A stretch of DNA of 64,000 nucleotides from Myxococcota bacterium (GTDB lineage Bacteria > Myxococcota_A > UBA9042), in contig JBMOIG010000002.1 in assembly GCA_049317445.1 (NCBI GenBank), forward strand, positions 2,635-66,634, written 5' to 3'. This document shows positions 8,312 to 21,756 of this stretch, in pieces. The notes under the pieces were generated by a model, which ran no database searches, was not told the origin of the DNA, and saw only the letters and a list, made by a program, of their open reading frames with translations. Each line of letters opens with the position of its first letter. Positions within the stretch are counted from its first letter, which is position 1. The translations under genes and the position numbers were made by a program.

Positions 8312-9001
8312 ATGCTCACCCCAGCCCGCCACCGTCCGCAGCTCACCGTTGTGCTGCTGACCATCTGCAGCCTCGCAGTCGCTTTCAACGCCCACGCCGC
8401 CAAGCCGAAGACCAAGACGAAGCCCGCAGAGGCCGTTCCTGCCCAGCCTGCCCCTGAAGCCAAGCCCGCAGGCAACCCGGGGGACCCGCAGAAGTTCATC
8501 TCCGGCCTGTACGACCGACTGAATCAGCTGAGCCAGAAGGCGCCCAACCTCGACGTGCTCCACAGCCAAATCGGCAAGGAATTGAACACTATCGTCGACT
8601 ACACCGAGATGGCGCGCCTGACGCTGGGGGCCAAGTGGGATGAGGTCACGCCTGTGCAACGCACCGAGTTCACCGACCTGCTCGCCAAAATGGTGCTGAA
8701 CACCTACGTCCGCAGGTTCAAGCCGGGCAGCGCTGTCGAGATCGCTTGGGGTGCCGCGCCCAAGACGCTGTCCGAAGGCAAGGTCAAGATCACCAGCACC
8801 ATCACCGTGAAGAAGACCTCGGCCGACGTGCAGTACGCCCTGCTGCCCCGCGGAGGCCAGTGGTGGGTCTACGACATCGTGGTGGACGACGCGAGCCAGG
8901 TGCAGACCTATCGGCAGTCGTTCAAGAAGATTCTGGACAAGGAAGGTTGGCCTGGCCTGGTGCAGCGGATGCGCAAGGCCGGCCAGAAGAAGGCCGGATG
9001 A
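8312..9001 (+). CDS. mlaC: MlaC/Ttg2D-family periplasmic phospholipid-binding protein
   Basis: gaaggag RBS then ATG 8312; signal peptide MLTPARHRPQLTVVLLTICSLAVAFNAHA. Body (IVDYTEMARLTLGAKWDEVTPVQRTEFTDLLAKMVLNTYVRRF...WWVYDIVVDDASQVQTYRQSFKKIL) matches MlaC domain conservation. Confidence 0.65.
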   Translation: MLTPARHRPQLTVVLLTICSLAVAFNAHAAKPKTKTKPAEAVPAQPAPEAKPAGNPGDPQKFISGLYDRLNQLSQKAPNLDVLHSQIGKELNTIVDYTEMARLTLGAKWDEVTPVQRTEFTDLLAKMVLNTYVRRFKPGSAVEIAWGAAPKTLSEGKVKITSTITVKKTSADVQYALLPRGGQWWVYDIVVDDASQVQTYRQSFKKILDKEGWPGLVQRMRKAGQKKAG

Positions 9002-9909
9002 CCCGACTCGCAGCGGTGTGCCGCCTCCCCCTGGTTCGCGTGGCCGGCTTGCTGGCGTCCGCTGCCGTGCTCGTCGGCTTTGGCCCGGTGCGCCCCCCGG
9101 CTGCGGGCTTTGCATCCCTCGGTTCGGCCGATGCGCTCGCGGCTGCCGGGTCCGGAGCGGCTGCGTTGTACGCCAACCCGGCCAGCATGATCCAACTACG
9201 TCAGAACACGATCGAATTTGGTGTAACGCGGGCACCGCTGGACGGTCGCACGCCGCTCTATGTCACGTCCGTGGACGCCACCTCGGGCTGGGGAATCGCG
9301 GGCGGCATCGGCTACAGCTACGACACCGACTGGACGCTGTCGAAAGGCACCCGAGGCGGCACCGATCTGCGACTCGGACTTGCGGCCGCGATGGAGGGCG
9401 ACAGCGCCCGCGTGATGGTCGGGGCCTCGGCGCGGCGCATGGACATCACGACCGAAGACCCTGCGGGAAACCGACGCGACGTAGCCGGCTGGACCGGCGA
9501 CGCCGGCGTGACCATCGCTCTGGGCGGCTTGCGACTGGCGGGCGTCGTGCGCAACGGTCTGGCGCTCGACCCCGTGGAAGCCCCCCGCCGAGTCGTCGCC
9601 GGCATCGCTCTGGTGCAACAGAGCTTCCTGATCGAAGGCGACGGTTCCTGGGGGCTTGAAGATGGCGCCCAACCCGCCGTGCGCGTCGGTGCAGCATGGC
9701 AACCGACGGACGAGGGCCTTCAGTTGCGCGCTGGCTATGCGTTTGACGACGCCGACGCTTCGCGACGATCGCGGCATTGGGTCACCGCAGGACTCGCCTG
9801 GAACACGGCCACGATCGGACTGGGTGCCGCTGCCGCCTTCGATGTGGAGCAAGCCCAGGACTTTACAGCGACGGTCGGATTCGTCTGGCAAGTCCCTTTC
9901 GACCTGTAA
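8998..9909 (+). CDS. Hypothetical secreted/outer-membrane protein (possible beta-barrel)
   Basis: ATG 8998 overlaps the mlaC stop (ATGA). Signal peptide MTRLAAVCRLPLVRVAGLLASAAVLVG. Alternating hydrophobic pattern; C-terminal ...GFVWQVPFDL. Confidence 0.45.
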   Translation: MTRLAAVCRLPLVRVAGLLASAAVLVGFGPVRPPAAGFASLGSADALAAAGSGAAALYANPASMIQLRQNTIEFGVTRAPLDGRTPLYVTSVDATSGWGIAGGIGYSYDTDWTLSKGTRGGTDLRLGLAAAMEGDSARVMVGASARRMDITTEDPAGNRRDVAGWTGDAGVTIALGGLRLAGVVRNGLALDPVEAPRRVVAGIALVQQSFLIEGDGSWGLEDGAQPAVRVGAAWQPTDEGLQLRAGYAFDDADASRRSRHWVTAGLAWNTATIGLGAAAAFDVEQAQDFTATVGFVWQVPFDL

Positions 9910-10019
9910 CGATTCGGCAAACGCGCCAAGCTGTGCTACTGTCGCCGCACGCTCTCATGAACGCTTCGTGAGAGTGACAACCGCGCCGGACAACGGTGCC
10001 AGGAAATGGGTACGTGCAG

Positions 10020-10436
10020 ATGGGAAACAAGCTTTTTGTCGGTGGCCTGAGCTGGGGAACGACGGACGAGTCGTTGCGCTCGGCCTTCGCGGAGTGTGGG
10101 GATGTGACGGACGCCAAGGTCATCACGGATCGTGAGACCGGCCGCTCGCGCGGTTTCGGCTTCGTTACGATGGCGGACGACGCCAGCGCTCGCGAGGCTG
10201 TGAGCCGCATGGACGGCCAGGCGATCGACGGTCGCACCGTCAAGGTCAGCGAGGCGCAAGAGCGCAGCCCCCGTAGCGGCGGCGGCGGCGGTGGCGGCGG
10301 CTTCGGCGGCGGCGGCGGCGGCGGTGGTGGCTACGGCGGCGGCGGCGACCGCGGCGGTCGCGGCGGCTTCGGCGGTGGCGGCGGCGGCGATCGCGGCGGC
10401 TTCGGCGGCGACCGCGGCGGCTTCGGCCGGCGCTAG
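10020..10436 (+). CDS. Glycine-rich RNA-binding protein (single RRM domain plus RGG/Gly tail)
   Basis: MGNKLFVGGLSWGTTDESLRSAF...RGFGFVTM contains the RNP-2 (LFVGGL) and RNP-1 (RGFGFVTM) motifs. C-terminal GGGGGGGGFGGGGGGGGGYGGGGDRGGRGGFGGG repeat tail. Confidence 0.85.
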   Translation: MGNKLFVGGLSWGTTDESLRSAFAECGDVTDAKVITDRETGRSRGFGFVTMADDASAREAVSRMDGQAIDGRTVKVSEAQERSPRSGGGGGGGGFGGGGGGGGGYGGGGDRGGRGGFGGGGGGDRGGFGGDRGGFGRR

Positions 10437-10493
10437 GCCCCAGCCACGGTCCGGGATGCCGGACCGACGCAAGCTACACTGCGAGCAAGCGAA

Positions 10494-10540
10494 CAACGCC
10501 CGCGGCACCGAAAGGAGCCGCGGGCGTTGTGCTTTTTGCC
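10494..10540 (+). terminator. Rho-independent terminator downstream of the RRM gene
   Basis: AACGCCCGCGGC-accgaaaggag-GCCGCGGGCGTT followed by GTGCTTTTTG. GC stem plus U-tract. Confidence 0.6.
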
Positions 10541-10630
10541 CCAAGCGCCGCTCATAGGAGTCCGGCGGCAGGCAGGCAGGCAAGCACCCTTCGGAACTCG
10601 CCGCCCAGGCCTCCGCGCATCCCCAAAACC

Positions 10631-10672
10631 AGAACGCCCGCGGGACCTTGCGGTGCCGCGGGCGTCCTTGAG
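10631..10672 (-). terminator. Probable terminator hairpin downstream of the A3 gene (end of the A/B array)
   Basis: Inverted repeat ACGCCCGCGG...CCGCGGGCGT located 35 nt beyond the stop at 10707. The stem sequence is the same as the neighbouring plus-strand terminator. No clear U-tract on the minus strand. Confidence 0.4.
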
Positions 10673-10706
10673 TTGAGAGCGAAGCCGCTATCGGCCGAGC
10701 GGCGAG

Positions 10707-12755
10707 CTACTGGTCGTAGCCGCCAGTGGCCGTGTCGAGGTCGTCGACGTACTGCAGTCCTGCGGGCAGGGCGAGGCTGTTGTTCGTGAAGCCCAAAATG
10801 AGCGTGCGGGACGAGTTGGACTCGGGACCAGTTGTCGAGACAAAGATCACCGTGCTCGTACGTCCAGCCGGAATCGACAGGGACACATCCTTCAGGCAGC
10901 CGGCATTGCAATTGCTGTCGGACGACCAAATGTTCTGTCCGTTGAGAGCGACCGAAGCGCGCTCCGACCAGCCGGGGTAGGCCGTGTATGCGAACCGAAC
11001 CGGCCAGGCTACGGTGGCGGCGGTGGTGTTCTTGATTCGGAACAGGGTGCCAGCAAAGCGCGACTGGCAGCTGCTACAGCCACGGTTGCGGCCGTACTTG
11101 AACCACTCGGAGTACACCCGCGCGTTGTTCATGGCGCTCCCCTTGCGATTGAAGAGCGTCGCCTGAATCGACTTGTCCGCGGAGATATCCGAAGCCTTGC
11201 CCTCACCATCGGACCAAGTCGACGGGTTGACGCCGCCAAAAAGGTCCGTCTGATTGCCGAATAGCCAGCCGCCGTTGCTGTTGTACGTGCTCCAAACGCC
11301 CCACCGGTAGGTCGAGGGGGTCAGGCCGCCAATGAACTGCGCAGCCGACACCTGACCGGTCACGGTGACGTTGCCGGTCACGGCGATGTTGCTCTTGACG
11401 TTGACTGTCTTGGCAGACACCAGCGTAAAGGCGACCGACCAGCTGTTGATCGCTCCGTCGGAATTGCCGCCCGTCACAGTGCTGTCCAGAACCTTCAGGT
11501 ACCACTTGCCTGCGGGGCTCTGACCCTTCCAGACGGAAAGATCGCCGGTGGCGACCGCCGTCGGGGTCGGGTAGGTCGTCTTCAGCACGGTGCCGCTACC
11601 CGACTTGTTGTGAAGGATGTACTCGTCACCATTCGGATCGTAGAGGTAGACGACCAGCTTGCCGATGTTGGAGTTGGTCAGATCCACCGACACCGTCATG
11701 CTCTGGATGGTGCCCAGCGCGCCGGCGGTGACGGAGTCGGTCACGCCGACGGGGCTGTTGTCAGGGATCGCGATGGCGGTCTTGCCGGCCAGCGTATCGG
11801 TGACCAAGTTGGTGAGGACGCCGTTCGACACGACCACGAGGCCGTCGTTCGGCAACATGTCGGCCGTCACCGACGGCGTCGCCGCCTCGACGCACGCCAA
11901 AGTACCGTCCGCGTTGATGCCTTCCGCAAGGAAGCCGGGGTCGCAAGCGGCGTCAGTGGCCACCAGCGTCGGCAGGTCACCCAAGTCGGCATAGCTGCCC
12001 GACGACGCGACGGTGGCAAGGTCAGCTGCCAGCGCATAGGCCGTCAGGTCCGGCACGCCGGTCAGGTCCGCGTACGCTCCCGAGGTCGCGAGTGCAGCCA
12101 GCGCGGCCGCCTTGGCGTAGATCGTCAGGTCCGGCGTCCCCGCCAAGTCCGCATACGCACCCGAAGATGCGAACTTGGTCAGGCCAGCCGACTTCGCGTA
12201 GGGCGCCAGGTCGGGCGTGCCTACCAGGTCCCCGTAGGCGCCGGTCGTTGCCGACTTGGAGAGGTCTGCCGACTTGACGTAGGGCGCAAGAACGGCCGGA
12301 TCGACGCTGGTCGACTTGACGCAGCCCGTGCAGTCCAACGCCTCGGTCACGATGCTGCGCATGGCGAACGGAACCGACGACAGCGACTGTCGCGGGAACT
12401 CAGGGTCCGCCCCGACCTTCACGCCGACAAACGGCGTCGTCAGGTTCGCAAAGACCGCCGGATTGATCGGCGTCTTCACGCCCAACGTGAAGTGGTAGAA
12501 GCCGCTCTTCACGGTCACGTTGACCGGACCCTCAGCAAACACCGCAACACCGCCGGAGGACGCTGCGTAGAGGCTGAAGGTCACGGCGTAGGTGCCGTCC
12601 GCCACGGGTCCGCCGCCCACCGAGAACAGGCCGCCGTGAACGGCAAGCGTGCTGGGGGCAGCGGCGAATGCGACGCCGGGCAGCGACAGGGCCAGGACGA
12701 CGGCCATGCTGCGCAACACGCCGAGTGCCTTGGAACCAGAGGTGAAGATGGTCAT
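10707..12755 (-). CDS. Family-A secreted protein A3: signal peptide, N-domain, phage-tail-fibre-like 22-aa repeats, P-domain (proprotein-convertase type), conserved unknown C-terminal domain
   Basis: 682 aa; MTIFTSGSKALGVLRSMAVVLALSLPGVAFA signal. Four to five tandem repeats YAK.A.L.K.ATSGAYADLxGxPDL. Segment GKLVVYLYDPNGDEYILHNKSGSGTVLKTTYP...WKGQSPAGKWYLKVLDSTVTGGNSDGAINSWSVAF resembles a P-domain. C-terminal ~220 aa (TYRWGVWSTYNSNGGW...LQYVDDLDTATGGYDQ) is conserved in all three paralogs. Paralogous to 15419-17068 and 19717-21756. Confidence 0.8.
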   Translation of the reverse strand: MTIFTSGSKALGVLRSMAVVLALSLPGVAFAAAPSTLAVHGGLFSVGGGPVADGTYAVTFSLYAASSGGVAVFAEGPVNVTVKSGFYHFTLGVKTPINPAVFANLTTPFVGVKVGADPEFPRQSLSSVPFAMRSIVTEALDCTGCVKSTSVDPAVLAPYVKSADLSKSATTGAYGDLVGTPDLAPYAKSAGLTKFASSGAYADLAGTPDLTIYAKAAALAALATSGAYADLTGVPDLTAYALAADLATVASSGSYADLGDLPTLVATDAACDPGFLAEGINADGTLACVEAATPSVTADMLPNDGLVVVSNGVLTNLVTDTLAGKTAIAIPDNSPVGVTDSVTAGALGTIQSMTVSVDLTNSNIGKLVVYLYDPNGDEYILHNKSGSGTVLKTTYPTPTAVATGDLSVWKGQSPAGKWYLKVLDSTVTGGNSDGAINSWSVAFTLVSAKTVNVKSNIAVTGNVTVTGQVSAAQFIGGLTPSTYRWGVWSTYNSNGGWLFGNQTDLFGGVNPSTWSDGEGKASDISADKSIQATLFNRKGSAMNNARVYSEWFKYGRNRGCSSCQSRFAGTLFRIKNTTAATVAWPVRFAYTAYPGWSERASVALNGQNIWSSDSNCNAGCLKDVSLSIPAGRTSTVIFVSTTGPESNSSRTLILGFTNNSLALPAGLQYVDDLDTATGGYDQ

Positions 12756-12849
12756 GAGATGCCCTCTCTTGCGGCGGGGTCGGTGGCTCTGGTGTCAGTT
12801 GCGTCGCCCCGCCGGCAACGCCTACTGTGCCTCTCGGCAAGCCCTGGTC
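12756..12849 (-). repeat. Conserved ~94-nt B-to-A intercistronic leader (copy 1), ~90% identical to 17069-17162
   Basis: Direct comparison: gagatgccctctcttgcggcggggtcggtgg(c/t)c(c/t)tggtg(a/t)cagt(c/t)gcgtcgccccgccggcaacgc(tt/ct)(g/a)ctgtgcct(t/c)tcggcaagccctggtc. In mRNA sense it contains an 8-bp GC stem CGGCGGGG...CCCCGCCG just 5' of the RBS AAGAGAGGG. Confidence 0.7.
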
Positions 12850-15366
12850 TTACTGCCCGATCAGTGCGCGGAGCCAAACGTACCAACCCAACCGGGTGAA
12901 GTACTTCTCGCCACCGCTCGCTTCGCCCGTCACGACGCTTGTGCCGACGTAGGTCTGCGTTCCATAGGTGCTTCCAGCAGCATTCACGGCAGCTGTGCCG
13001 AAGTCGACCGTCGCCGCTCCAGGCTCACAGCCCTCGTCGGTGATGCCGTCGCACGTGTCGTCGATGCCGTTGCAGGACTCGGAGTTCGCCGGCAGCACGG
13101 CGTCCTTGCAGATGCCGTAGGTGCCATCCGCCTGGCAAGCCTTCAGGCCATCCTTGCACTTGCCCTTGCCCTGGTTCTTCGGGTCGCCGGGGAAGCACGC
13201 GGCCGTGGCTGACGTGTCCACCTTGTGCGAGCACCCGGAGTCCTTGGCGCACGTGTCGGCGGTGCAGGGGTTGTTGTCGTCGCAGTTCGCCGCGGCACCG
13301 GAGACGCAGGTGTAGGCCTTGGTGACAGGATTCGTTCCGCAGGCGTCGCCCGAAGTGCACGCGTTGCCGTCGTCGCACGAGGCCGCGATCGGCTGGAAGA
13401 CGCAGGTGCCGGTCGTGGGGTCACACGCGTCCTTGGTGCAGTTCTCCTTGTCCTCACAGACCTTCTTGGGGCCTGCGACGCAGGAACCGCCGGCGCAGAC
13501 GTCGTTCACGGTGCAGGCGTTGCCGTCAGCGTCGCAAGGGGCCGTGTTGACAGTGAAGGTGCAACCCGACTTGGGGTCGCAGGCGTCGTCGGTGCAGAGA
13601 TTGGCGTCGTCGCACTTCTGCGCCGCGCCCTTGACGCACTGACCGTCTGCGCAGGCATCGTTCACGGTGCACAGGTCGTCGTCCGCGTTGCAGCCCGTAC
13701 CGACAACCGCCTTGGTGACCACGCACTGGCCGTCACCAGGATTGCACGCGACCGACTGGCACTGGTTGTTCAGGGTCTCGTCGCACTTGACCACGGAGTC
13801 CAGCTTGACGTTGCAGACCCACTTCACCGGGTCGGTCTTGTCGCAGAACAGCGTTCCGTTGCAGGCGTTGCCGTCCTCAGACGCCGCGCAGTCCTTGTCT
13901 TCAGCGCAGCTGCACTGGTTGGCGCCGGGAATGCAGGTTCCGGAGGTGCACTTGTCGCCAGGCGTACAAGGGTTGCCGTCGTCGCACGCCACGCCATCCG
14001 CGCCTGCCGGGTCGTGCACGCAGCCCTTGGAGGGCACACACGCATCCACCGTGCAGGGGTCCTTGTCGTCGCAGACCGTCGCGGTGTCCACCGCTGTGCC
14101 GGTGCACTTGCCGACCTTGCAGGCATCCTGCTCAGTGCAGGCGTCGCCGTCGTCGCAGACCGGCCCGTCCAAGTTGGCGTGCTTGCAGCCCAACATTGGG
14201 TCGCAGCTGTCCGCGCTGCAGGCATCCTTGTCGTTACAGTCGATCAGCTCGCCTCCGCAGGTCGAGGAGGTCGCGTCCGAGGCCAAGCAGACGTCTTTCA
14301 TCGTGCAGGCGCTGGCATCGTCGCAGGGTGTGCCGTCGGGCCGGGCGGCCGTCAGACAGTCTCCACTCGTCTTGTCGCATGAGCCGGACAGGCAGGGGTC
14401 GCCAGTCTCACACGTCTTGACTTCACCCTTGACGCAGGCGCCGTCCTTGCAGGTGTCGGCCACCGTGCAGGCGTCACCGTCAGCGTCACAGCTCGCGGTA
14501 TTGTTGGTGAAGACGCAGCCCTTCGCCGGGTCACACGTGTCGTCGGTGCACGGATTCTGGTCGTTGCACTCAAGGGTCGGACCTGGCTCGCACTTCGCCG
14601 CCTTGGTGCAGTAGTCGCCGTTGGTGCACAGGCTGTCGTCGGCGTTGCAGGTGCCCGTCTTCACCGCGTTCTTGCAGCCGTCCTTGCCCGCGCAAGAGTC
14701 CTCGGTGCATTGGTTGCTGTCGTCACAGGTCACGTCGTCGGTCGCGGCGTTGCAGTCGTTGTCGAGCCCGTCGCAGATCTCCGCCGTGGGCGCCTTGGCC
14801 GAGCAAGCGGTCAGGCCGGCCGCCTCGCACTTGCGAGTGCCCGTGCACTTGTTGACGCCCTGGGCGTCTGCGGAGAAGCAGGTCGTGTCCCAACCGGCGG
14901 CGATGGCGGCCTCACTGCACTTGCAGACGGCTCCGTCCTTCGGCACGCACTGCTTGACGGCGGCGCCGGTCACGTCCTTGACGTCAGCGCAGCCGTATCC
15001 GTCCGCGCAATCCTTGTCGACCGCGCACTTCGCTCCGCAAAACGCGCCGTCCTTGCCGAAGTCCACGCACACCGCGTCCGGAGCGCCGGCGCACTGGATG
15101 TTCGCCACGCAGGGAGCGCACAGGTCCCGGCCTTCCGGCTTCGCGATGTCCTGGTCCGTCATGTCGCCCGCAACATCGTCGGTGCTGTCCGGCTGGGTCA
15201 CATCGCCGGTGGTGTCTGCGGTGTCCGCGGTGTCCGCGACCACTGTGTCCGCGGGAGTCTCAGTCGTGGAACCGGCGTCGCCGCACGCGACCAGGCCGGC
15301 AGTAGCCAGTCCAAGTACACACGCCGTTGCGATGCGTCCAGCAAGCAGTTCTCGAAGGGTCTTCAT
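12850..15366 (-). CDS. Family-B cysteine-rich lipoprotein B2 (MopE-like CDGxDNDC motifs plus Myxococcus-type Cys-rich repeats)
   Basis: ATG 15366 with GAGGAGTGG RBS. MKTLRELLAGRIATACVLGLATAGLVACGD (lipobox LVAC). About 20 units of C-[DN]-D-x-[ND]-x-C-T-x-D-x-C spacing. AEICDGLDNDCNAATDD and ESCNGIDDTCDGITDEGC motifs. C-terminal GGEKYFTRLGWYVWLRALIGQ. Longer ORF to 15405 adds 13 unlikely residues. Confidence 0.75.
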   Translation of the reverse strand: MKTLRELLAGRIATACVLGLATAGLVACGDAGSTTETPADTVVADTADTADTTGDVTQPDSTDDVAGDMTDQDIAKPEGRDLCAPCVANIQCAGAPDAVCVDFGKDGAFCGAKCAVDKDCADGYGCADVKDVTGAAVKQCVPKDGAVCKCSEAAIAAGWDTTCFSADAQGVNKCTGTRKCEAAGLTACSAKAPTAEICDGLDNDCNAATDDVTCDDSNQCTEDSCAGKDGCKNAVKTGTCNADDSLCTNGDYCTKAAKCEPGPTLECNDQNPCTDDTCDPAKGCVFTNNTASCDADGDACTVADTCKDGACVKGEVKTCETGDPCLSGSCDKTSGDCLTAARPDGTPCDDASACTMKDVCLASDATSSTCGGELIDCNDKDACSADSCDPMLGCKHANLDGPVCDDGDACTEQDACKVGKCTGTAVDTATVCDDKDPCTVDACVPSKGCVHDPAGADGVACDDGNPCTPGDKCTSGTCIPGANQCSCAEDKDCAASEDGNACNGTLFCDKTDPVKWVCNVKLDSVVKCDETLNNQCQSVACNPGDGQCVVTKAVVGTGCNADDDLCTVNDACADGQCVKGAAQKCDDANLCTDDACDPKSGCTFTVNTAPCDADGNACTVNDVCAGGSCVAGPKKVCEDKENCTKDACDPTTGTCVFQPIAASCDDGNACTSGDACGTNPVTKAYTCVSGAAANCDDNNPCTADTCAKDSGCSHKVDTSATAACFPGDPKNQGKGKCKDGLKACQADGTYGICKDAVLPANSESCNGIDDTCDGITDEGCEPGAATVDFGTAAVNAAGSTYGTQTYVGTSVVTGEASGGEKYFTRLGWYVWLRALIGQ

Positions 15367-15418
15367 CTGCCACTCCTCGGTCCGACGGCGTTCAGTGCTG
15401 TGCAAGTCGCAACCCGCA

Positions 15419-17068
15419 TCAGTTGTCCCAACCGTTCGCGGCGGTCTCCAGATCGTCCACGTACTCGAGGCCGTCCGGCAGAGTCAGCGTCGGATGGCGG
15501 AAGCCAAGCATGACAAGCACGTTGCCGCGTCCGCCTGGGCCGTTGCTGCTCACGAAGATGACGGTGCTGGTTCGGTTGGCCGGGATGGTCAACGCGACGC
15601 TCTGCTCACAACCGTTGCCGCAGTCGTTGCCGGATTGCCAGACGTTGCTGCCGTTCAGGGCGACGGAGGCCTGATTGCTCCACCCTGAATACGAGGTGTA
15701 GACGTACTTCACGGTCCAGGTGATGGCAGAGCCCGTGCTGTTTCGGACACGCATGAGGGTTCCGGCGAATCGCGCGGCTTGGCTGTAGTTGCCACCAATC
15801 TGAAACTGCTCGGCAACGACGTTCGCGGCAGAGCGGGCGTAGCCCTTGCGATTGAACAGCGATGCAAGCACGTTTTTGTCCGAGCTCATCGCAGCCGCAT
15901 TGGCCATGCTCTCAGCCCAGTTCGACGGGTTGACGCCGCCAAACAGGCTGGCGTTGTTGCCCCAGAACCAGTCGTTGCAGTTCAGGTAGGTGTCCCACAT
16001 GCCCCAGCGGTACGTCGCGGTCGGCACGCCCTTGATCGGCTTGGAAACGATGAGGTTGCCGGTGATGGTCAGGTTGCCGGCGGCGCTGAAGTTGTCCGCC
16101 ACCTTCAGGGTGCCGCTGACGTTCTGAAGGATGCCGTTCGAGATGGCTCCGAGTCCGTCCGGGGGAAGCGACGCGGCGGGCAGCAGACCTACCATCGCCT
16201 GGGCGCAATCCAACGAACCGTCCGCCTTGATGCCCTTGACCACCAGACCCGTGCCGCAGCTGACGCCGAGGGCGACGTGGGTGGGCAGTCCTGCGAGGTC
16301 GGCGTAGGCGCCCGTCGTGGCGACCTTGGCGAGGTTGGCCTTGACGGCAAATCCCGTAAGGTCGGGCGCATCCGCGACATCGGCGAACTTGCCTGACGTC
16401 GCGACCGTCGCCAGGTTGCCCGACTGTGCGTAGACGGCGAGGTTCGGCGTGCCCGCGACGGTGGCGTAGGCGCCCGAGGTCGCGACCTTGGCGAGGTCAG
16501 CGATCTTCGCGTAGGGCGAAAGGTCAGGCGTGCCCGCAAAGTCGGCATAGGCGCCTGAGGTCGCGGCCTTCGCCAAGCCAGCGGACTTCGCATAAGGCGC
16601 GAGCACCGCGGCGTCCAACTGACCGGACGTGATGCAGCCCGTGCAGTCCACGCCGTCGGCGGTGGCCGACCGCAGTGCGTAGGGCAGCGCACCCATCGGC
16701 TGGCGGGCCAGCTCCGGGTCGGCGCCAATCTTGATGCCGAGATACGGCGTGGCCAAGGCCACCACGACCGCGGGGTCCAGCAGCGTCTTGGAGCCGATGG
16801 TGTACTGGTAGTAGCCACCCTTCACGGCGACCACGACCGGCCCCTCAACGTACACCGGGTTTCCGCCCACGGCGGCCTGGTACAGGCTGAAGGTCATGAA
16901 GTAGTTGCCATCCGACACCGCGCCACCGCCGGCAGCGAACAACCCGCCATGAACCGCCATCGAGCTGGGCACGGCCGCAAAAGCGACGCCCGACAGCGAC
17001 AGGGCCAGGACGACGGTCATGCTGCGCAACACGCCGAGTGCCTTGGATCCAGAGGTGAAGATGGTCAT
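15419..17068 (-). CDS. Family-A secreted protein A2 (short form: tail-fibre-like repeats and C-domain, P-domain absent)
   Basis: ATG 17068 gives MTIFTSGSKALGVLRSMTVVLALSLSGVAFA, nearly identical at nucleotide level to the A3 start. Repeats LAKAATSGAYADFAGTPDLSPYAK... C-terminal ATYRWGMWDTYLNCNDWFWGN...LEYVDDLETAANGWDN. The ~110-aa P-domain segment of A1/A3 is missing. Confidence 0.75.
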   Translation of the reverse strand: MTIFTSGSKALGVLRSMTVVLALSLSGVAFAAVPSSMAVHGGLFAAGGGAVSDGNYFMTFSLYQAAVGGNPVYVEGPVVVAVKGGYYQYTIGSKTLLDPAVVVALATPYLGIKIGADPELARQPMGALPYALRSATADGVDCTGCITSGQLDAAVLAPYAKSAGLAKAATSGAYADFAGTPDLSPYAKIADLAKVATSGAYATVAGTPNLAVYAQSGNLATVATSGKFADVADAPDLTGFAVKANLAKVATTGAYADLAGLPTHVALGVSCGTGLVVKGIKADGSLDCAQAMVGLLPAASLPPDGLGAISNGILQNVSGTLKVADNFSAAGNLTITGNLIVSKPIKGVPTATYRWGMWDTYLNCNDWFWGNNASLFGGVNPSNWAESMANAAAMSSDKNVLASLFNRKGYARSAANVVAEQFQIGGNYSQAARFAGTLMRVRNSTGSAITWTVKYVYTSYSGWSNQASVALNGSNVWQSGNDCGNGCEQSVALTIPANRTSTVIFVSSNGPGGRGNVLVMLGFRHPTLTLPDGLEYVDDLETAANGWDN

Positions 17069-17162
17069 GAGATGCCCTCTCTTGCGGCGGGGTCGGTGGC
17101 CCTGGTGACAGTCGCGTCGCCCCGCCGGCAACGCTTGCTGTGCCTTTCGGCAAGCCCTGGTC
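17069..17162 (-). repeat. Conserved ~94-nt B-to-A intercistronic leader (copy 2)
   Basis: See 12756-12849. Same hairpin-plus-RBS arrangement preceding A2. Confidence 0.7.
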
Positions 17163-19649
17163 CTATTGTCCGATCAGCGTACGCAGCCAGATGTACCAGC
17201 CCAACCGGGCGAAGTACTTCTCACCACCGCTGGCGTCTCCCGTGACTGCGCTTGTTCCCATGTACGACTGCGTGCCGTAAGTCGCGCCCGTTGCGCTGAT
17301 GGCGGCGACGCCGAAACCGATCTTGGACGAACCCGGCTCGCACCCCTCATCGGTGGCGCCGTTGCAGGTGTCGTCGATGCCGTTGCAGAGCTCTGCAGAA
17401 CCCGGCAAGACGGCGCCCGTGCAGCTGCCGAACTTTCCGTCTGCCTGGCAGAACTTGACGCCGTCCTTGCACTTGCCCTTGCCCTGATTGGCCGGGTCGC
17501 CGGGGAAGCAGGCTGCCTTGACGTTCGTGTCGACCTTGTGGGCACACCCGTTGTCCTTCGCGCACGAGTCGATGGTGCAAGGGTTGCCGTCGTCGCAGTC
17601 CACGCCCTTGCCGGGCACGCAGGTGTACACCTTGGTGGCGGGGTCGGAACCGCAAGCGTCGCCGGTCGTGCAGGCGTTGCCGTCGTCGCAGGTCGCCGTG
17701 ATGCCTTCGAACACGCAGAGCGCAGACGTAGCGTCGCAGGAGTCCTTGGTGCATTCCTCGCTGTCGTCGCAGACCTTCTTGGCACCCGCGACACACGACC
17801 CGCCCGCGCAGATGTCGTTCACCGTGCAGGCGTCGCCATCTGCGTCACATGACGCGGTATTCGGCGTGAACTTGCAGCCGTTCTTCGGGTCGCAGGTGTC
17901 GTTGGTGCAACCGTTGCTGTCGTCGCACTTCTCAGCGGACCCCTTGGCGCAGATGCCGTTGGCGCAAGCGTCCTTGACGGTGCACACGTCGTTGTCGGCG
18001 TTGCACGCCGTGCCCGCCTCGGCCTGGCTGACGACGCACTTGCCGGTGGCGGTGTCGCACGCCACGCTCTGGCAGGCGGTGTTGAGCGACTCGTCGCACT
18101 TGACGATCGTGTTCTTGTTGACGTTGCAGACCCACTTCATCGGGTCAGCCTTGTCGCAGACCAGCGTTCCGTTGCAGAGATCCCCATCTTCCGCGGGTGC
18201 GCAGTCCGCATCCTTGGTGCATTGGCACTGATTCACGCCACCCTCGCACGTCCCGGCCTTGCACTTGTCGTTGGGGGTGCAGGGGTTGCCGTCTTCGCAG
18301 GCCGCGCCGTCAGCGCCGGCGACGTCGTGCACGCAGCCCTTGTCCGGCGAGCAGGTGTCGGCCGTGCAGGGGTCCTTGTCGTCGCACGCCTTGGCCACTT
18401 CCAAAGCCGCGCCGCTGCACTTGCCGGCGACGCAGGCGTCGTCGAGGGTGCAGGCGTTGCCGTCGTTGCAGACGCCGACGTCCAGAGGTGCGTGCTTGCA
18501 ACCCACCGTCGGGTCGCAGCTGTCGGCCGTGCAGTTGCTGAGGTCGTCGCAGTCCACGATCTCGCCGCCGCAGGTCGAGGTAGTAGCGTCGGAGGCCAAG
18601 CAGACGTCGGACACGGTGCAGGCGCTGGCGTCGTCGCAAGGGGTGCCGTCGGGGCGCGTGGCCTTGGTGCACTTGCCGGTCGCTTCGTCGCAGCCGCCGA
18701 TAAGGCACGCGTCGCCCGTCTCGCAGGCCTTGAGCGCGCCGGCCTGGCAAGTGCCGTCCTTGCACATGTCCCCGAGCGTGCACGCTTTTCCATCCGCGCA
18801 CTCGACCGTGTTGTTGGCGTACTGGCAGCCCTTGGTCGGGTCGCACGAGTCGTCGGTGCAGGGGTTCTTGTCGTCGCAGTCAAGCGCCTTGCCCGGCGCG
18901 CAGGTGCCGTCCTTGCACGCATCCTTGTCGGTGCAGGCACTGCCGTCGGCGTCGCACGCCGCCGTGTTGGCCTTGTTCTCGCAACCGGCGACGCCTGCGC
19001 ACTTGTCGTCGGTGCAAAGGTTCTGGTCGTCGCAAGACACGTCGTCGGTCTGGGCGTTGCAGTCGTTGTCGAGACCGTCGCAGATCTCAGCAGACGGCGC
19101 CTTTGCCGAGCACGCCGACAGGCCGCCCGCTTCGCACTTGCGGGTTCCCGTGCACTTGTTGACGCCCTTGTCATCGGCCACGAAGCACGTCGTGTCCCAA
19201 GCGCCCGCGGTGGCCGCAACGCTGCACGTGCAGAGGGCGCCGGCCTTGGGAACGCACTGCTTGACCGCCGCACCCGCCACGTCCTTGACGTCGCTGCAGC
19301 CGTAACCGTCGGCGCAGTCCGTGTCGACCGTACACTTCGCTCCGCAGAAGGCCCCATCCTTGCCGAAGTCGACGCAGACGGAGTCGGGCTTGGTCGTGCC
19401 CTGACACTGCTCATTGGCGGTGCAGGGGGCGCACAGCTCAGCGCGACCATCAGGTGCGACCGTGTCTTCGGTGACGGTATCGGGCAGGGCCACGTCTTCG
19501 GTGGTGTCGGTTGCATCGCCAACGACGGTGTCCGTGGCATCACCCTGCACGCTGCCACTGTCACCGCAGGCTGCAACACCGGTCGCGGCGAGGCCAATGG
19601 CGCACGCCGTGCCGATATGTCCCGCTAGCAGTTCTCGAAGGGTCTTCAT
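17163..19649 (-). CDS. Family-B cysteine-rich lipoprotein B1
   Basis: 828 aa; MKTLRELLAGHIGTACAIGLAATGVAACGD (lipobox VAAC). Same architecture and about 70-75% identity to B2. Ends GGEKYFARLGWYIWLRTLIGQ. Confidence 0.8.
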   Translation of the reverse strand: MKTLRELLAGHIGTACAIGLAATGVAACGDSGSVQGDATDTVVGDATDTTEDVALPDTVTEDTVAPDGRAELCAPCTANEQCQGTTKPDSVCVDFGKDGAFCGAKCTVDTDCADGYGCSDVKDVAGAAVKQCVPKAGALCTCSVAATAGAWDTTCFVADDKGVNKCTGTRKCEAGGLSACSAKAPSAEICDGLDNDCNAQTDDVSCDDQNLCTDDKCAGVAGCENKANTAACDADGSACTDKDACKDGTCAPGKALDCDDKNPCTDDSCDPTKGCQYANNTVECADGKACTLGDMCKDGTCQAGALKACETGDACLIGGCDEATGKCTKATRPDGTPCDDASACTVSDVCLASDATTSTCGGEIVDCDDLSNCTADSCDPTVGCKHAPLDVGVCNDGNACTLDDACVAGKCSGAALEVAKACDDKDPCTADTCSPDKGCVHDVAGADGAACEDGNPCTPNDKCKAGTCEGGVNQCQCTKDADCAPAEDGDLCNGTLVCDKADPMKWVCNVNKNTIVKCDESLNTACQSVACDTATGKCVVSQAEAGTACNADNDVCTVKDACANGICAKGSAEKCDDSNGCTNDTCDPKNGCKFTPNTASCDADGDACTVNDICAGGSCVAGAKKVCDDSEECTKDSCDATSALCVFEGITATCDDGNACTTGDACGSDPATKVYTCVPGKGVDCDDGNPCTIDSCAKDNGCAHKVDTNVKAACFPGDPANQGKGKCKDGVKFCQADGKFGSCTGAVLPGSAELCNGIDDTCNGATDEGCEPGSSKIGFGVAAISATGATYGTQSYMGTSAVTGDASGGEKYFARLGWYIWLRTLIGQ

Positions 19650-19716
19650 CTGACTCTCCCTGGTTCAGGGTCAGGTGGTCGAGGAGGTCCAGTCTACGCC
19701 AGTCGCGCTACCGGAC

Positions 19717-21756
19717 TTACTGCTCCCAACCGCCCGTCGCCGTGTCCAGATCGTCGACGAGTTCGAGACCATTCGGCATGTTGAGGCTGTCGTTGTAGAA
19801 GCCCAGCATGAGCGCGCGGGAGCCGCAGGATTCCGGGCCGGTACCTGCGATGAAGATGACCGTGCTGGTGCGGTTGGCGGGGATCGTCAACCCGGCGCTG
19901 GCTGTGCATCCCACGTAGCAGTCGCTGCCGGTCCAGACCGTATTGCCGTTGATCATCAAAGCCGAGCGCTCGCCCCAACCTTGGTACGAGGTGGCCACCC
20001 AGTACAGCGGCCAGTTGATGCCGCTGCCGGTCGTGTTCTTGACGCGGAATAGGGCACCTGCTCGCTTGGCCTCTGTGCTGCCAATCTGATTACCCTTGCG
20101 CCACATCTGCGCCGTGACCAACGTATTGAATTTCGCGTAACCCTTCTCGGAGAAGAGCGTAGCGAGCGACACCTTGGCGGAGGACATGTCGCTGGGATTC
20201 GGGTTGCTGTCGCACCAAGTAGACGGAGCCACACCACCGAACAACTCGCCGTCGTTGTTCATGAACCAGCCGCTACCATGGTCATAGCAGTCCCACACAG
20301 CAAAGCGGTACTTGGCCTTGGGCAAGCCGAGGATGCTGCCGCCGACGGTGATGGAACCGGCGACCGTGGCGTTGCCGACGACCGTGGCGGAGCCGCTGAC
20401 GCCGACTTTGTTCCCGGAGATCACTTGGAAGTTGAGCGACCACGCCGTGACCTTGCCGTCGATGTTGCCGTCGAGCTTGCCGCTATCGACGACCTTCAAG
20501 TACCACTTGCCCTTGGGGTTCTTGCCGATCCAGGTGGTCAGGTCGCCGCTGGCCGGACTGGTCGGGTCAGGGTAGGAGGTCTTCAGCGTGGTGCCAAAGC
20601 TGCTCTTGTTGTACAGGACGTACGCGGCGCCGGCCGGGTCGTAGAGCGTCACTTGAATCTTGGCGAGGTCGGAGTTCAAGAGGTTGATCGACACGGTGAA
20701 GGTCTGGACGATGCCGATGTCGCCAACTTCGACGGTGTCGGTCGCACCAACCGGGGTGTTGTCCGGGATCGGCAGGTTCGGGGTGCCCGAGATCTTCTCA
20801 GCGAAGACGTTGGTCAGCAGGTTGTTCGAGACCTCGTCGAGGCCATCCTTGGGCAGGTTTGCCGCAAGCACGCTGGTGATGTTCGTCTGAACGCAGTCGA
20901 GCGAACCGTCTTCCAGGAAGCCGGCCACGAGCAGGCCGGTGCCGCAGGACTGACCCACCTGAGCAACGGCGGGAGCACCGGCAAGGTCGTTGTACGAGTT
21001 GGTGGTCGCTACGGTCGCGAGGTCGGCCGCCTTGGCGTAGCCCGCCAGGTCCGGCACGCCGGTGAGGTCGGCGTAGGCACCGGAGACCGCAACCTTGGCG
21101 AGCGAGGCCGCCTTGGCGTAGATGGCGAGGTCCGGGGTGCCGGAGACGTCGGCGTAGGCGCCCGTCGTGGCAACCTTGGCAAGCCCAGCCGTCTTTGCGT
21201 ACGCCGTGAGGTCCGGTGCGCCCGTGACGTCCGCGTAGGCGCCCGACGTCGCGACCTTGGCCAGCGTGTCCGTCTTGGCGTACGGCGCCAGAACGTCTGC
21301 AGCCAAGTGGGTCGCCTTGAGGCACCCGGTGCAGCCCAGCGAGTCGCTGACCGAGGAACGCAGGGCGTACGGCACCGACGTCATGGGCAGCTTGGTGAAC
21401 TCAGGGTCGGTGCCGACCTGAATCGCCAAGTACGGCGACGTCAGCTTCGCCAGCGTGTCGGCGCTGAGCGACGCCTTGGTGCCGAGCGTGTACTGGAAGA
21501 CGCCATTCTTGACAGTGACGCCAGTGGGGCCTTCCACGTAGGCGGCGCTGCTGCCGATGGCCGACGGGTAGATGCTGAACGTCATCTGGTAAGCGCCATC
21601 TGAAATCGGCCCGCCGCCAACTGCGTACAGTCCGCCGTGCACGTCGATGAGCTTGGGCACGGCTGCGAAGGCCACGCCGGGAAGCGCAAGCAGCAAGGCG
21701 AAGGCCATGCTGCGCACGACGCCGAGAGCCTTGGAACGATGGGTGAAGATCGTCAT
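19717..21756 (-). CDS. Family-A secreted protein A1 (promoter-proximal paralog with P-domain)
   Basis: ATG 21756 gives MTIFTHRSKALGVVRSMAFALLLALPGVAFA. Repeats AKVATSGAYADVTGAPDLTAYAKTAGL... P-domain AKIQVTLYDPAGAAYVLYNKSSFGTTLKTSYP...KGKWYLKVVDSGKLDGNIDGKVTAWSLNF. C-terminal ...LELVDDLDTATGGWEQ. Confidence 0.8.
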   Translation of the reverse strand: MTIFTHRSKALGVVRSMAFALLLALPGVAFAAVPKLIDVHGGLYAVGGGPISDGAYQMTFSIYPSAIGSSAAYVEGPTGVTVKNGVFQYTLGTKASLSADTLAKLTSPYLAIQVGTDPEFTKLPMTSVPYALRSSVSDSLGCTGCLKATHLAADVLAPYAKTDTLAKVATSGAYADVTGAPDLTAYAKTAGLAKVATTGAYADVSGTPDLAIYAKAASLAKVAVSGAYADLTGVPDLAGYAKAADLATVATTNSYNDLAGAPAVAQVGQSCGTGLLVAGFLEDGSLDCVQTNITSVLAANLPKDGLDEVSNNLLTNVFAEKISGTPNLPIPDNTPVGATDTVEVGDIGIVQTFTVSINLLNSDLAKIQVTLYDPAGAAYVLYNKSSFGTTLKTSYPDPTSPASGDLTTWIGKNPKGKWYLKVVDSGKLDGNIDGKVTAWSLNFQVISGNKVGVSGSATVVGNATVAGSITVGGSILGLPKAKYRFAVWDCYDHGSGWFMNNDGELFGGVAPSTWCDSNPNPSDMSSAKVSLATLFSEKGYAKFNTLVTAQMWRKGNQIGSTEAKRAGALFRVKNTTGSGINWPLYWVATSYQGWGERSALMINGNTVWTGSDCYVGCTASAGLTIPANRTSTVIFIAGTGPESCGSRALMLGFYNDSLNMPNGLELVDDLDTATGGWEQ

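Follow-up and report, generated by a model that had tools for sequence, protein, structure and literature searches.

The predator Bdellovibrio bacteriovorus recognises diverse prey by means of mosaic fibre adhesins, the MAT fibres, whose N domain has been proposed to bind an unidentified element of the cell surface (Caulton et al. 2024, PMC10769870). No cysteine-rich lipoprotein partner of the Bdellovibrio MAT genes is mentioned in that work (PMC10769870). Here, we describe a gene cluster from an uncultured member of the Myxococcota in which genes for secreted, fibre-like proteins of similar modular design (A proteins) lie beside genes for cysteine-rich lipoproteins (B proteins). The cluster is located in a window of 64,000 nucleotides, the whole stretch of DNA analysed, on contig JBMOIG010000002.1 of the metagenome-assembled genome (MAG) GCA_049317445.1. 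The analysis centres on gene B1 (12850-15366, minus strand), which encodes an 838-amino-acid (aa) cysteine-rich lipoprotein with a Dicty_CTDC match at E 1.3e-23, and on its paralogue B2 (17163-19649, minus strand; 828 aa, 69% identity). Both open reading frames (ORFs) are present as delimited in an initial annotation that had been made from the sequence alone.

A second point of comparison is Entamoeba histolytica's Gal/GalNAc lectin, in which the ligand-binding site resides in a separate subunit (PMC12948311). When the AlphaFold2 (AF2) model of B1 was searched with Foldseek, the heavy chain of this lectin (PDB 9gjg, 9gjc and others) was the only significant match among solved structures (E 1e-6, probability 0.82-0.89). 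The template modelling (TM) scores against the lectin are very low (0.07), so that the likeness lies at the level of local repeats and not of the global fold. A profile search of B against PDB sequences returned no match, and no sequence homology to the lectin is detectable. The heavy chain of the lectin forms a long and flexible arm, rich in cysteines, that is carried by a surface adhesin with a membrane anchor, a design that B resembles. The lectin, however, is eukaryotic and consists of a transmembrane heavy chain and a glycosylphosphatidylinositol (GPI)-anchored light chain, whereas B has an N-terminal lipid anchor.

Cysteine-rich repeat proteins of the Myxococcota include the outer-membrane exchange receptor TraA of Myxococcus xanthus, in which an N-terminal PA14-like variable domain is combined with TIGR02232-type repeats and a MYXO-CTERM sorting tag, and whose partner TraB is OmpA-like. 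The initial annotation had placed the B proteins in the frame of TraA-style recognition and had drawn a link to Myxococcus; neither is borne out. B resembles TraA as a cysteine-rich repeat protein of the cell surface in Myxococcota that is encoded beside a partner gene, but it is the conserved member of its pair and not the polymorphic one. In B1 and B2, Pfam finds only Dicty_CTDC and no PA14-like domain, NCBIfam gives no match to TIGR02232-type repeats at E up to 0.01, and there is no MYXO-CTERM. A TraB-type OmpA domain was not found in the five A/B genes, the neighbours of B being A-family proteins. The host, moreover, is an uncultured Myxococcota MAG and not Myxococcus.

The repeat unit itself is shared with the Dicty_CTDC proteins, which comprise extracellular matrix and prespore proteins of Dictyostelium as well as bacterial "cysteine-rich repeat proteins", thousands of them from Myxococcota MAGs. 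In contrast, the base domain, the central module, and the knob and tail described below are specific to the B subfamily, and most repeat proteins have neither the tail nor A neighbours. B also contains the MopE-like motif CDGxDNDC(D/N)G twice, with sub-threshold matches to PF11617, and the likeness to MopE ends at this motif.

Genetic Linkage of B and A Genes

Hidden Markov models (HMMs) of the C-terminal tail of B and of the A N-terminal domain were scanned over every fetched locus. In all seven independent lineages with readable flanks, the tail-bearing B gene adjoins A genes. The window and its strain variants L003 and L004, which together count as one lineage, show the order A-B-A-B-A. A different organism, whose B is 55% identical, has A-B (L001). 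The remaining lineages show A-B-A-A-A-A-A (L005), B-A-B (L006), B-A-A (L008), B-A (L009) and B-A-A-A-A-B (L210), the two B proteins of the last having 1228 and 934 aa. The initial annotation had considered that B homologues elsewhere might never lie next to A-family genes; they do so in these seven lineages, with no exception. It had also described a strict alternation of A and B genes, and this is true locally but not as a general rule, since the arrangements elsewhere are A-B, A-B-A5, B-A-B, B-A-A, B-A and B-A4-B.

As a control, about 70 loci encoding tail-less Dicty-repeat proteins were examined (70-odd of the 80 loci obtained from a genome-contig scan with generic repeat patterns), and an A gene was present in only three of them (L016, L018 and L063). 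A scan of metagenomes with the pattern GFYAWLK gave mostly chance matches, with a single real locus among 120. This locus, L207, has two B genes in tandem, and its contig of 3.5 kb is too short to judge A neighbours. No other gene was found to be conserved around the A-B module in the fetched neighbourhoods.

Several of the MAG records concerned (L009, L010, L012, L023, L029, L030 and L078) bear the title "uncultured Enterobacteriaceae bacterium" or "Klebsiella pneumoniae", probably because the bins were deposited under a wrong taxonomic label.

The C-Terminal Tail of the B Proteins

The feature that tracks with the A genes is a C-terminal segment of 58 residues. In B1, it covers residues 781-838 (12853-13026, minus strand) and is made up of four short predicted strands followed by a Trp/Leu-rich helix, ending in ...GGEKYFTRLGWYVWLRALIGQ. 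The strands are placed at residues 785-814 and the helix at 827-835 by AF2, with low confidence (the predicted local distance difference test score, pLDDT, is ~60 for the helix). A conserved terminal segment GGEKYFxRLGWYxWLRxLIGQ had been noticed earlier in the two B proteins, and it is indeed found in both as the last part of this longer unit. The accompanying description of the tail as amphipathic stands in part: AF2 predicts a helix with a pLDDT of ~60, and the hydrophobic moment is moderate (0.32-0.34) on a hydrophobic background. Low AF2 confidence for the terminal unit would be expected if it folded on a partner, and is not specific evidence for one.

The initial annotation had held that the tail is not an obvious MYXO-CTERM, and this is confirmed. 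Up to E 10, the last 100 aa match none of the models in NCBIfam or Pfam. The segment has only about 10 hydrophobic residues and ends without an Arg/Lys cluster, and it does not show the tripartite signal (short motif, membrane-spanning hydrophobic helix and basic cluster) of substrates of the MYXO-CTERM, exosortase or rhombosortase type.

Among the best 120 relatives of B1, 79 carry the same end-module, and they fall into size classes of ~830, 925, 1230 and 1420 aa. The tail consensus reads PTGFxARxGNAxVxGxGxKxxxRAxxGxSxxxGxxxGxKxxAxxGFYxWLxxLLG(K/L), with G814, G827 and W831 invariant in an alignment of 31 sequences. A profile of 61 positions built from the tail recovered 41 clusters at E<=1e-3 among 1.84 billion cluster representatives, and in all 41 the match sits within a few residues of the C-terminus. 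Twenty-six of these proteins were inspected. All 26 are cysteine-rich repeat proteins (162-1462 aa, some of them fragments), and one has a different N-terminal region. Conservation of the tail outside this locus, which had been in question, is thus found across the size classes and the 41 clusters. In a comparison with hhalign, the tail profile showed no similarity to the A profile.

A variant of the module occurs in locus L018 (JAWLBL010000041.1), where three B-like cysteine-rich proteins have a truncated tail that ends in ...RVRFGF, without the YxWLxxLLG helix. They adjoin an ORF of 1100 aa (stop to stop) that matches the HMM of the A N domain.

Domain Architecture of the B Proteins

Both B proteins begin with MKTLRELLAG and a lipobox, as the initial annotation had proposed; the lipobox is LVAC in B1 and VAAC in B2, and the lipidated cysteine is residue 28. 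The rule applied was of the PROSITE PS51257 type and calls for a positively charged n-region, a hydrophobic h-region and a lipobox [LVI][ASTVI][GAS]C whose Cys falls between residues 15 and 35. By this rule, B1 and B2, which have K/R within the first seven residues, are both bacterial lipoproteins, that is, substrates of Lgt and LspA (signal peptidase II, SPII). The signal peptide and lipobox of B1 span residues 1-28 (15283-15366, minus strand); those of B2 lie at 19566-19649, and the B2 tail at 17166-17339. A lipobox is also present in 67 of 77 tail-bearing relatives, in which positions +2 to +4 are biased to G-D/E-D/E.

The lipid anchor of B1 is followed by an acidic, Thr/Asp-rich linker (residues 29-80; 15127-15282, minus strand) that is predicted to be disordered (AF2 pLDDT 26-42). 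It is the least conserved region of B, its identity being 49% when B1 is compared with B2 and 80% when strains are compared. Next comes a cysteine-rich N-terminal base domain (residues 81-215; 14722-15126, minus strand), whose cysteines are invariant and at the end of which stands the first of the two MopE-like motifs, AEICDGLDNDCNAATDD (residues 195-211; 14734-14784, minus strand; sub-threshold PF11617 match at E 1.4e-4). The rod that follows consists of alternating disulfide hairpin units of the Dicty_CTDC type, modelled by AF2 as beta-hairpins with a pLDDT of 72-87 in its first part (residues 216-482; 13921-14721, minus strand). It is interrupted at residues 483-558 (13693-13920, minus strand) by a central module, CSCAEDKDCA...CNGTLFCDK in B1, and resumes with more units of the same type as rod part 2 (residues 559-722; 13201-13692, minus strand). 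The distinct central module had been singled out in the initial annotation, and it is present in both proteins in the form C(S/Q)C(A/T)(E/K)D(K/A)DCA...CNGTL(F/V)CDK. Its cysteines are invariant across 31 family members, and it matches no Pfam or NCBIfam family. A C-terminal knob, conserved throughout the family (residues 723-780; 13027-13200, minus strand), contains the second MopE-like motif, CNGIDDTCDGITDEGC, and leads into the tail. Taken as a whole, the AF2 model of B1 shows a disordered linker, a beta-hairpin rod, and terminal strands and a helix of low confidence.

Two claims concerning the repeats and motifs had to be adjusted. About 20 repeat units had been announced, and a count by motif gives 16, arranged as eight alternating pairs of C-x-D-x-N-x-C-T-x-D-x-C (eight units) and C-D-A-D-G-x-A-C-T-x-x-D-x-C (eight units). 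The assignment to Dicty_CTDC (PF00526, threshold 27 bits) is clear, with 82.9 bits over seven stretches for B1 and 77.9 bits over six stretches for B2 (E 1e-23 and 5e-22). As for the MopE-like motifs, both are present, but the first, AEICDGLDNDCNA(A/Q)TDD, closes the N-terminal domain and does not stand at the N-terminus. The second, E(S/L)CNGIDDTC(D/N)G(I/A)TDEGCEPG, occupies residues 762-782 of B1. With 22.5 and 21.5 bits (E 1.4e-4 and 2.8e-4), the two motifs remain below the gathering threshold of 27 bits of PF11617 Cu-binding_MopE, so that "MopE-like" is a fair description of the motif and not a family assignment. Each of the two B proteins has 100 cysteines, 98 of them past the lipidated one, which leaves room for 49 disulfides.

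Conservation is unevenly distributed along the protein. Between B1 and B2, identity is highest in the base domain (80%), followed by the knob (76%), the tail (71%) and the rod (62-70%), and the length of the rod varies nearly three-fold within the B family (proteins of 544-1462 aa). Between strains, B is 96-98% identical outside the linker. Since both ends are conserved and the rod is variable in sequence and length, the pattern is what would be expected of a spacer that has surfaces for interaction at both of its ends. The relatives of B1 in the databases number more than 5000, with E values down to 0, all of them from metagenome-assembled Myxococcota or "Deltaproteobacteria", and given this number the anatomy of B is not a product of chance.

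The A Proteins

The three A proteins of the window have a type-I signal peptide and no lipobox. A1 (10707-12755, minus strand; 682 aa) is a fibre-like protein in which the signal peptide is followed by an N domain, by 27-aa AYADLxGxPDL repeats that make up the stalk, by a P domain (Pfam P_proprotein, E 9e-11) and by a beta-sandwich tip. A2 (15419-17068, minus strand; 549 aa) and A3 (19717-21756, minus strand; 679 aa) belong to the same family. The P domain (PF01483) is found in A1 and A3 and is absent from A2, although this protein retains the N domain and the repeats as well as a related tip. According to AF2, the N domain is a beta-sandwich (pLDDT 70-83) and the tip a confident beta-sandwich. 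The stalk is poorly modelled as a monomer (A1 residues 127-262, pLDDT <50).

These proteins share several traits with the MAT fibres, namely secretion, a fibre-like build, a constant N domain, a repetitive stalk, exchangeable C-terminal binding domains and multiple paralogues per genome. They differ in the 27-aa AYADLxGxPDL stalk, in having no S74 chaperone domain, in their internal P domain and in their host lineage of uncultured Myxococcota. A homotrimeric fibre in the form of an intertwined beta-prism is a further hallmark of the MAT superfamily. The mosaic organisation that characterises the MAT superfamily, a constant N-terminal part with exchangeable tips, is evident among 120 relatives of A. 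The N-terminal 63% of their length is conserved, and the novel tip seen in the window is exchanged for COLFI, fibrinogen-C, DUF4215, TLD, FGE-sulfatase or F5/8-C domains, so that at least six different tip domains occur. Tip and N-terminal part are mosaic between strains as well. Compared with A1, the relative P0121 is 99% identical in the N domain and 81% in the tip, and P0122 is 88% identical in the N domain and 95% in the tip. These reversed identities suggest recombination that swaps tips between near-identical strains.

At the level of named families, the N domain of A comes near to only one. NCBIfam NF053851 Bdello_MAT_N, whose curated cutoff is 60 bits, is matched by A3 with 22 bits (E 1e-4), and by the N domain of A1 with 15.8 bits (E 0.009). 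Matches to this model at E<=0.01 were obtained for six of 33 A relatives, all of them below the cutoff. A homologue search with the alignment of the A N domain returned short fragments only and no Bdellovibrio proteins, and constitutes no test of MAT homology. Structure searches were of limited help: with the full-length A1 model, Foldseek gave non-specific jelly-roll matches in the PDB, except for the P domain, which matched an Aeromonas sobria protease, and a mixture of phage tail-fibre, P-domain and capsid matches in BFVD that is not decisive. A profile search of A against PDB sequences yielded two weak and probably spurious matches. The repeat region of A2 matches PHROG 30808, a phage protein family of unknown function (E 2.4e-12). 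On sequence grounds, A may work like a mosaic adhesive fibre, and its membership in the MAT family is unproven. The database name "subtilisin-like proprotein convertase family protein", given to A relatives, is misleading.

At the junction of N domain and stalk, a C-x-G-C motif is invariant in all 33 aligned A proteins (A1 residues 142-145, ~12321-12332). Speculatively, this motif might tie the chains of a trimer together through a disulfide knot, as happens in some collagens. The number of cysteines is odd in A2 (7) and A3 (9), and A1 has 8. Tandem DNA repeats of 81 bp, located at 16391-16599 in A2 and at 21025-21282 in A3, encode the 27-aa stalk repeat, and their copy number could vary through slippage or recombination.

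A Proposed Two-Component Surface Structure and Its Alternatives

To explain the conserved pairing, we propose, with a rough probability of 0.4, a surface structure of two components, in which B is the constant stalk, tethered by its lipid, the A proteins are the exchangeable binding heads, and the B cap together with the tail is a candidate element for docking or assembly. In such a structure, B would be composed, in this order, of a lipid anchor, an acidic tether of ~50 residues, a cysteine-rich base, a disulfide-stapled rod and a cap, the latter being formed by the knob with its MopE-like CDGxDxxC motif and by the 58-residue tail that is found in this family only. The A proteins would act as Sec-secreted, anchorless, fibre-like adhesins, predicted to be co-transcribed with B. 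B would hold or present these variable fibres at the cell surface, its cap or tail docking or assembling on the conserved N-terminal part of A. We favour this two-component arrangement because tail-bearing B genes adjoin A genes in seven lineages, because B is conserved at both ends and near-invariant between strains, while the A1 tip varies (81% identity), and because the rod resembles the arm of the Entamoeba lectin. Surface exposure, the end of B that makes contact with A, and an adhesive role are all predictions that would follow from it.

Several points weigh against this proposal. The evidence is genomic throughout, and the physical contact between A and B is something that we infer from it. 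The N domain of A reaches 22 bits against the MAT model where the curated cutoff is 60, and the AF2 model of the tail is of low confidence. Surface exposure of a myxobacterial lipoprotein is not predictable from its sequence. In addition, three more distant A genes have no tail-bearing B within 10 kb: in L087 the A gene stands alone, in L088 two A genes form a tandem, and in L089 the A gene lies amid tail-less Dicty-repeat proteins. A can therefore exist without a neighbouring B. The stoichiometry of the genes also varies, from one B with six A to two B with one A. A still more specific version, in which the A-B pair is a previously undescribed two-component appendage and B the first identified surface element to anchor a MAT-like fibre N domain, is possible but doubtful.

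Of the other explanations, the one that survives best, although rather unlikely, is that B is an independent surface or matrix adhesin that is only co-regulated with A, its tail serving for self-association (e.g., trimerisation or lattice formation) or for binding to membranes or lipids, either of the own outer membrane or of a target cell. The end of the tail would seem suited to this, since its short helix contains many Trp, Phe, Tyr and Leu residues and has Lys or Arg at its flanks, but a helix of ~9-10 residues with a moment of 0.32-0.34 is too short to span a membrane and weak for an interfacial helix. B genes that act on their own would also be in line with the two B genes that flank several A genes in L210, with the B tandems (L207; ACOYOB_08685/08690), with the A genes that have no adjacent B, and with the name "extracellular matrix protein" given by its source to the relative P0087. 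This explanation does not account for the fact that adjacency to A goes with the tail and not with Dicty repeats as such.

It is distinctly improbable that the tail serves to sort or export B, as a C-terminal signal that a specialised machinery would read in order to display or free the protein and that might be removed afterwards, following the logic of MYXO-CTERM, PEP-CTERM, the C-terminal domain of the type IX secretion system (T9SS) or the beta-signal of outer membrane proteins (OMPs). Its position at the extreme C-terminus in 41 of 41 clusters, its few invariant Gly and Trp positions, its low AF2 confidence and the L018 variants, whose tails are truncated directly past the FGF motif, are all features that a signal of this kind could display. 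Nevertheless, the tail has no membrane-spanning hydrophobic segment with a basic cluster as in MYXO-, PEP- and GlyGly-CTERM, and no sorting-signal model of NCBIfam or Pfam matches it at E up to 10. In an OMP beta-signal the aromatic residue is the terminal one, but in B another 6-8 residues come after the aromatic cluster. In none of the neighbourhoods was a sortase-, exosortase- or rhombosortase-like gene, or any other conserved gene, present, and the co-encoded A proteins have no such tail. An OMP beta-signal and a MYXO-CTERM tag were both rejected for the tail. Slam-type surface lipoprotein export was likewise rejected, there being no DUF560 neighbour.

A TraA-like polymorphic receptor for cell-cell (kin) recognition would agree with a cysteine-rich repeat protein from Myxococcota and with two divergent paralogues in one locus, but is highly improbable for a protein that lacks the TraA hallmarks considered above and is near-invariant between strains outside the linker while it is the A tip that varies. 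Equally remote is the possibility that B, in the periplasm or at the surface, binds copper or calcium in the manner of MopE, with the CDGxDNDC motifs as its functional sites: the two "Putative metal-binding motif" matches (PF11617) and the resemblance of the Asp-rich motif to calcium-binding loops speak for it, but the matches are sub-threshold and cover 2 x ~17 of 838 residues, the likeness to MopE does not extend beyond the motif, any metal bound there would more likely be structural, and the linkage to A is left unexplained.

Genomic Context

The five genes are co-directional on the minus strand (10707-21756) in the order A3-B2-A2-B1-A1. The gaps between them measure 52-94 nt, and a purine-rich, Shine-Dalgarno-like sequence precedes each start. 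When promoters and terminators were searched for, no terminator-like site turned up in any of the gaps, and neither a sigma-70-like promoter nor a convincing terminator separates the five genes. B1 has the same length as NCBI MFZ4576894.1 (ACOYOB_00760), annotated as a hypothetical protein, B2 is identical to MFZ4576896.1 (ACOYOB_00770), and A3 corresponds to MFZ4576897.1. These counterparts, from a "Myxococcota bacterium" MAG, are labelled "hypothetical protein" or "proprotein convertase P-domain-containing protein".

The flanks of the cluster contain ordinary housekeeping genes, among them those for a pyridoxal phosphate (PLP) enzyme of Cys/Met metabolism, glycosyltransferases, pheS/pheT and glycogen phosphorylase. 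Over ~1.7 kb downstream of A1 (window positions 9000-10700), there is no ORF with the high third-position GC content typical of the genome. This region includes a 146-bp (GCG)n / 33-bp tandem repeat at 10276-10421, with a GC content above 80%. The contigs of the near-identical strains (L003 and L004) stop 0.3-0.7 kb past the A1 homologue, near the GC-rich repeat tract.

The MAG of the window has a second locus with an adjacent pair of B-family genes, one long (P0018, ACOYOB_08690) and one short (P0054, ACOYOB_08685), encoding proteins of 1213 and 931 aa. The organism thus has at least four tail-bearing B proteins. In an index of contigs, the sequences of B1, P0002 and P0054 had no exact match. 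In L087 (7679-9703), the solitary A gene is divergent from that of a 674-aa protein with several tandem DsbA/thioredoxin domains, which could be relevant to the oxidative folding of disulfide-rich proteins.

Significance

A search of one full-text library gave no description of bacterial Dicty_CTDC lipoproteins, of the B tail or of the A-B module. The B family is unnamed. The components of the A-B module are of known kinds, as disulfide-repeat surface proteins and mosaic fibres have both been described, and what is new is their conserved pairing and the C-terminal module.

Behind labels that read "hypothetical protein", the analysis delimits a protein family without a name, together with a C-terminal motif that is new. 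In a widespread uncultured freshwater lineage of Myxococcota, fibre genes of a MAT-like modular design are consistently found beside one kind of lipoprotein. This lipoprotein, B, whose C-terminal module would bind the N-terminal domain of A, is a concrete candidate for the anchor or scaffold of MAT-like fibres. If the pairing is physical, the A-B pair would represent a bacterial counterpart of the adhesins of the Entamoeba lectin type, in which a cysteine-rich arm is combined with a separate ligand-binding subunit.

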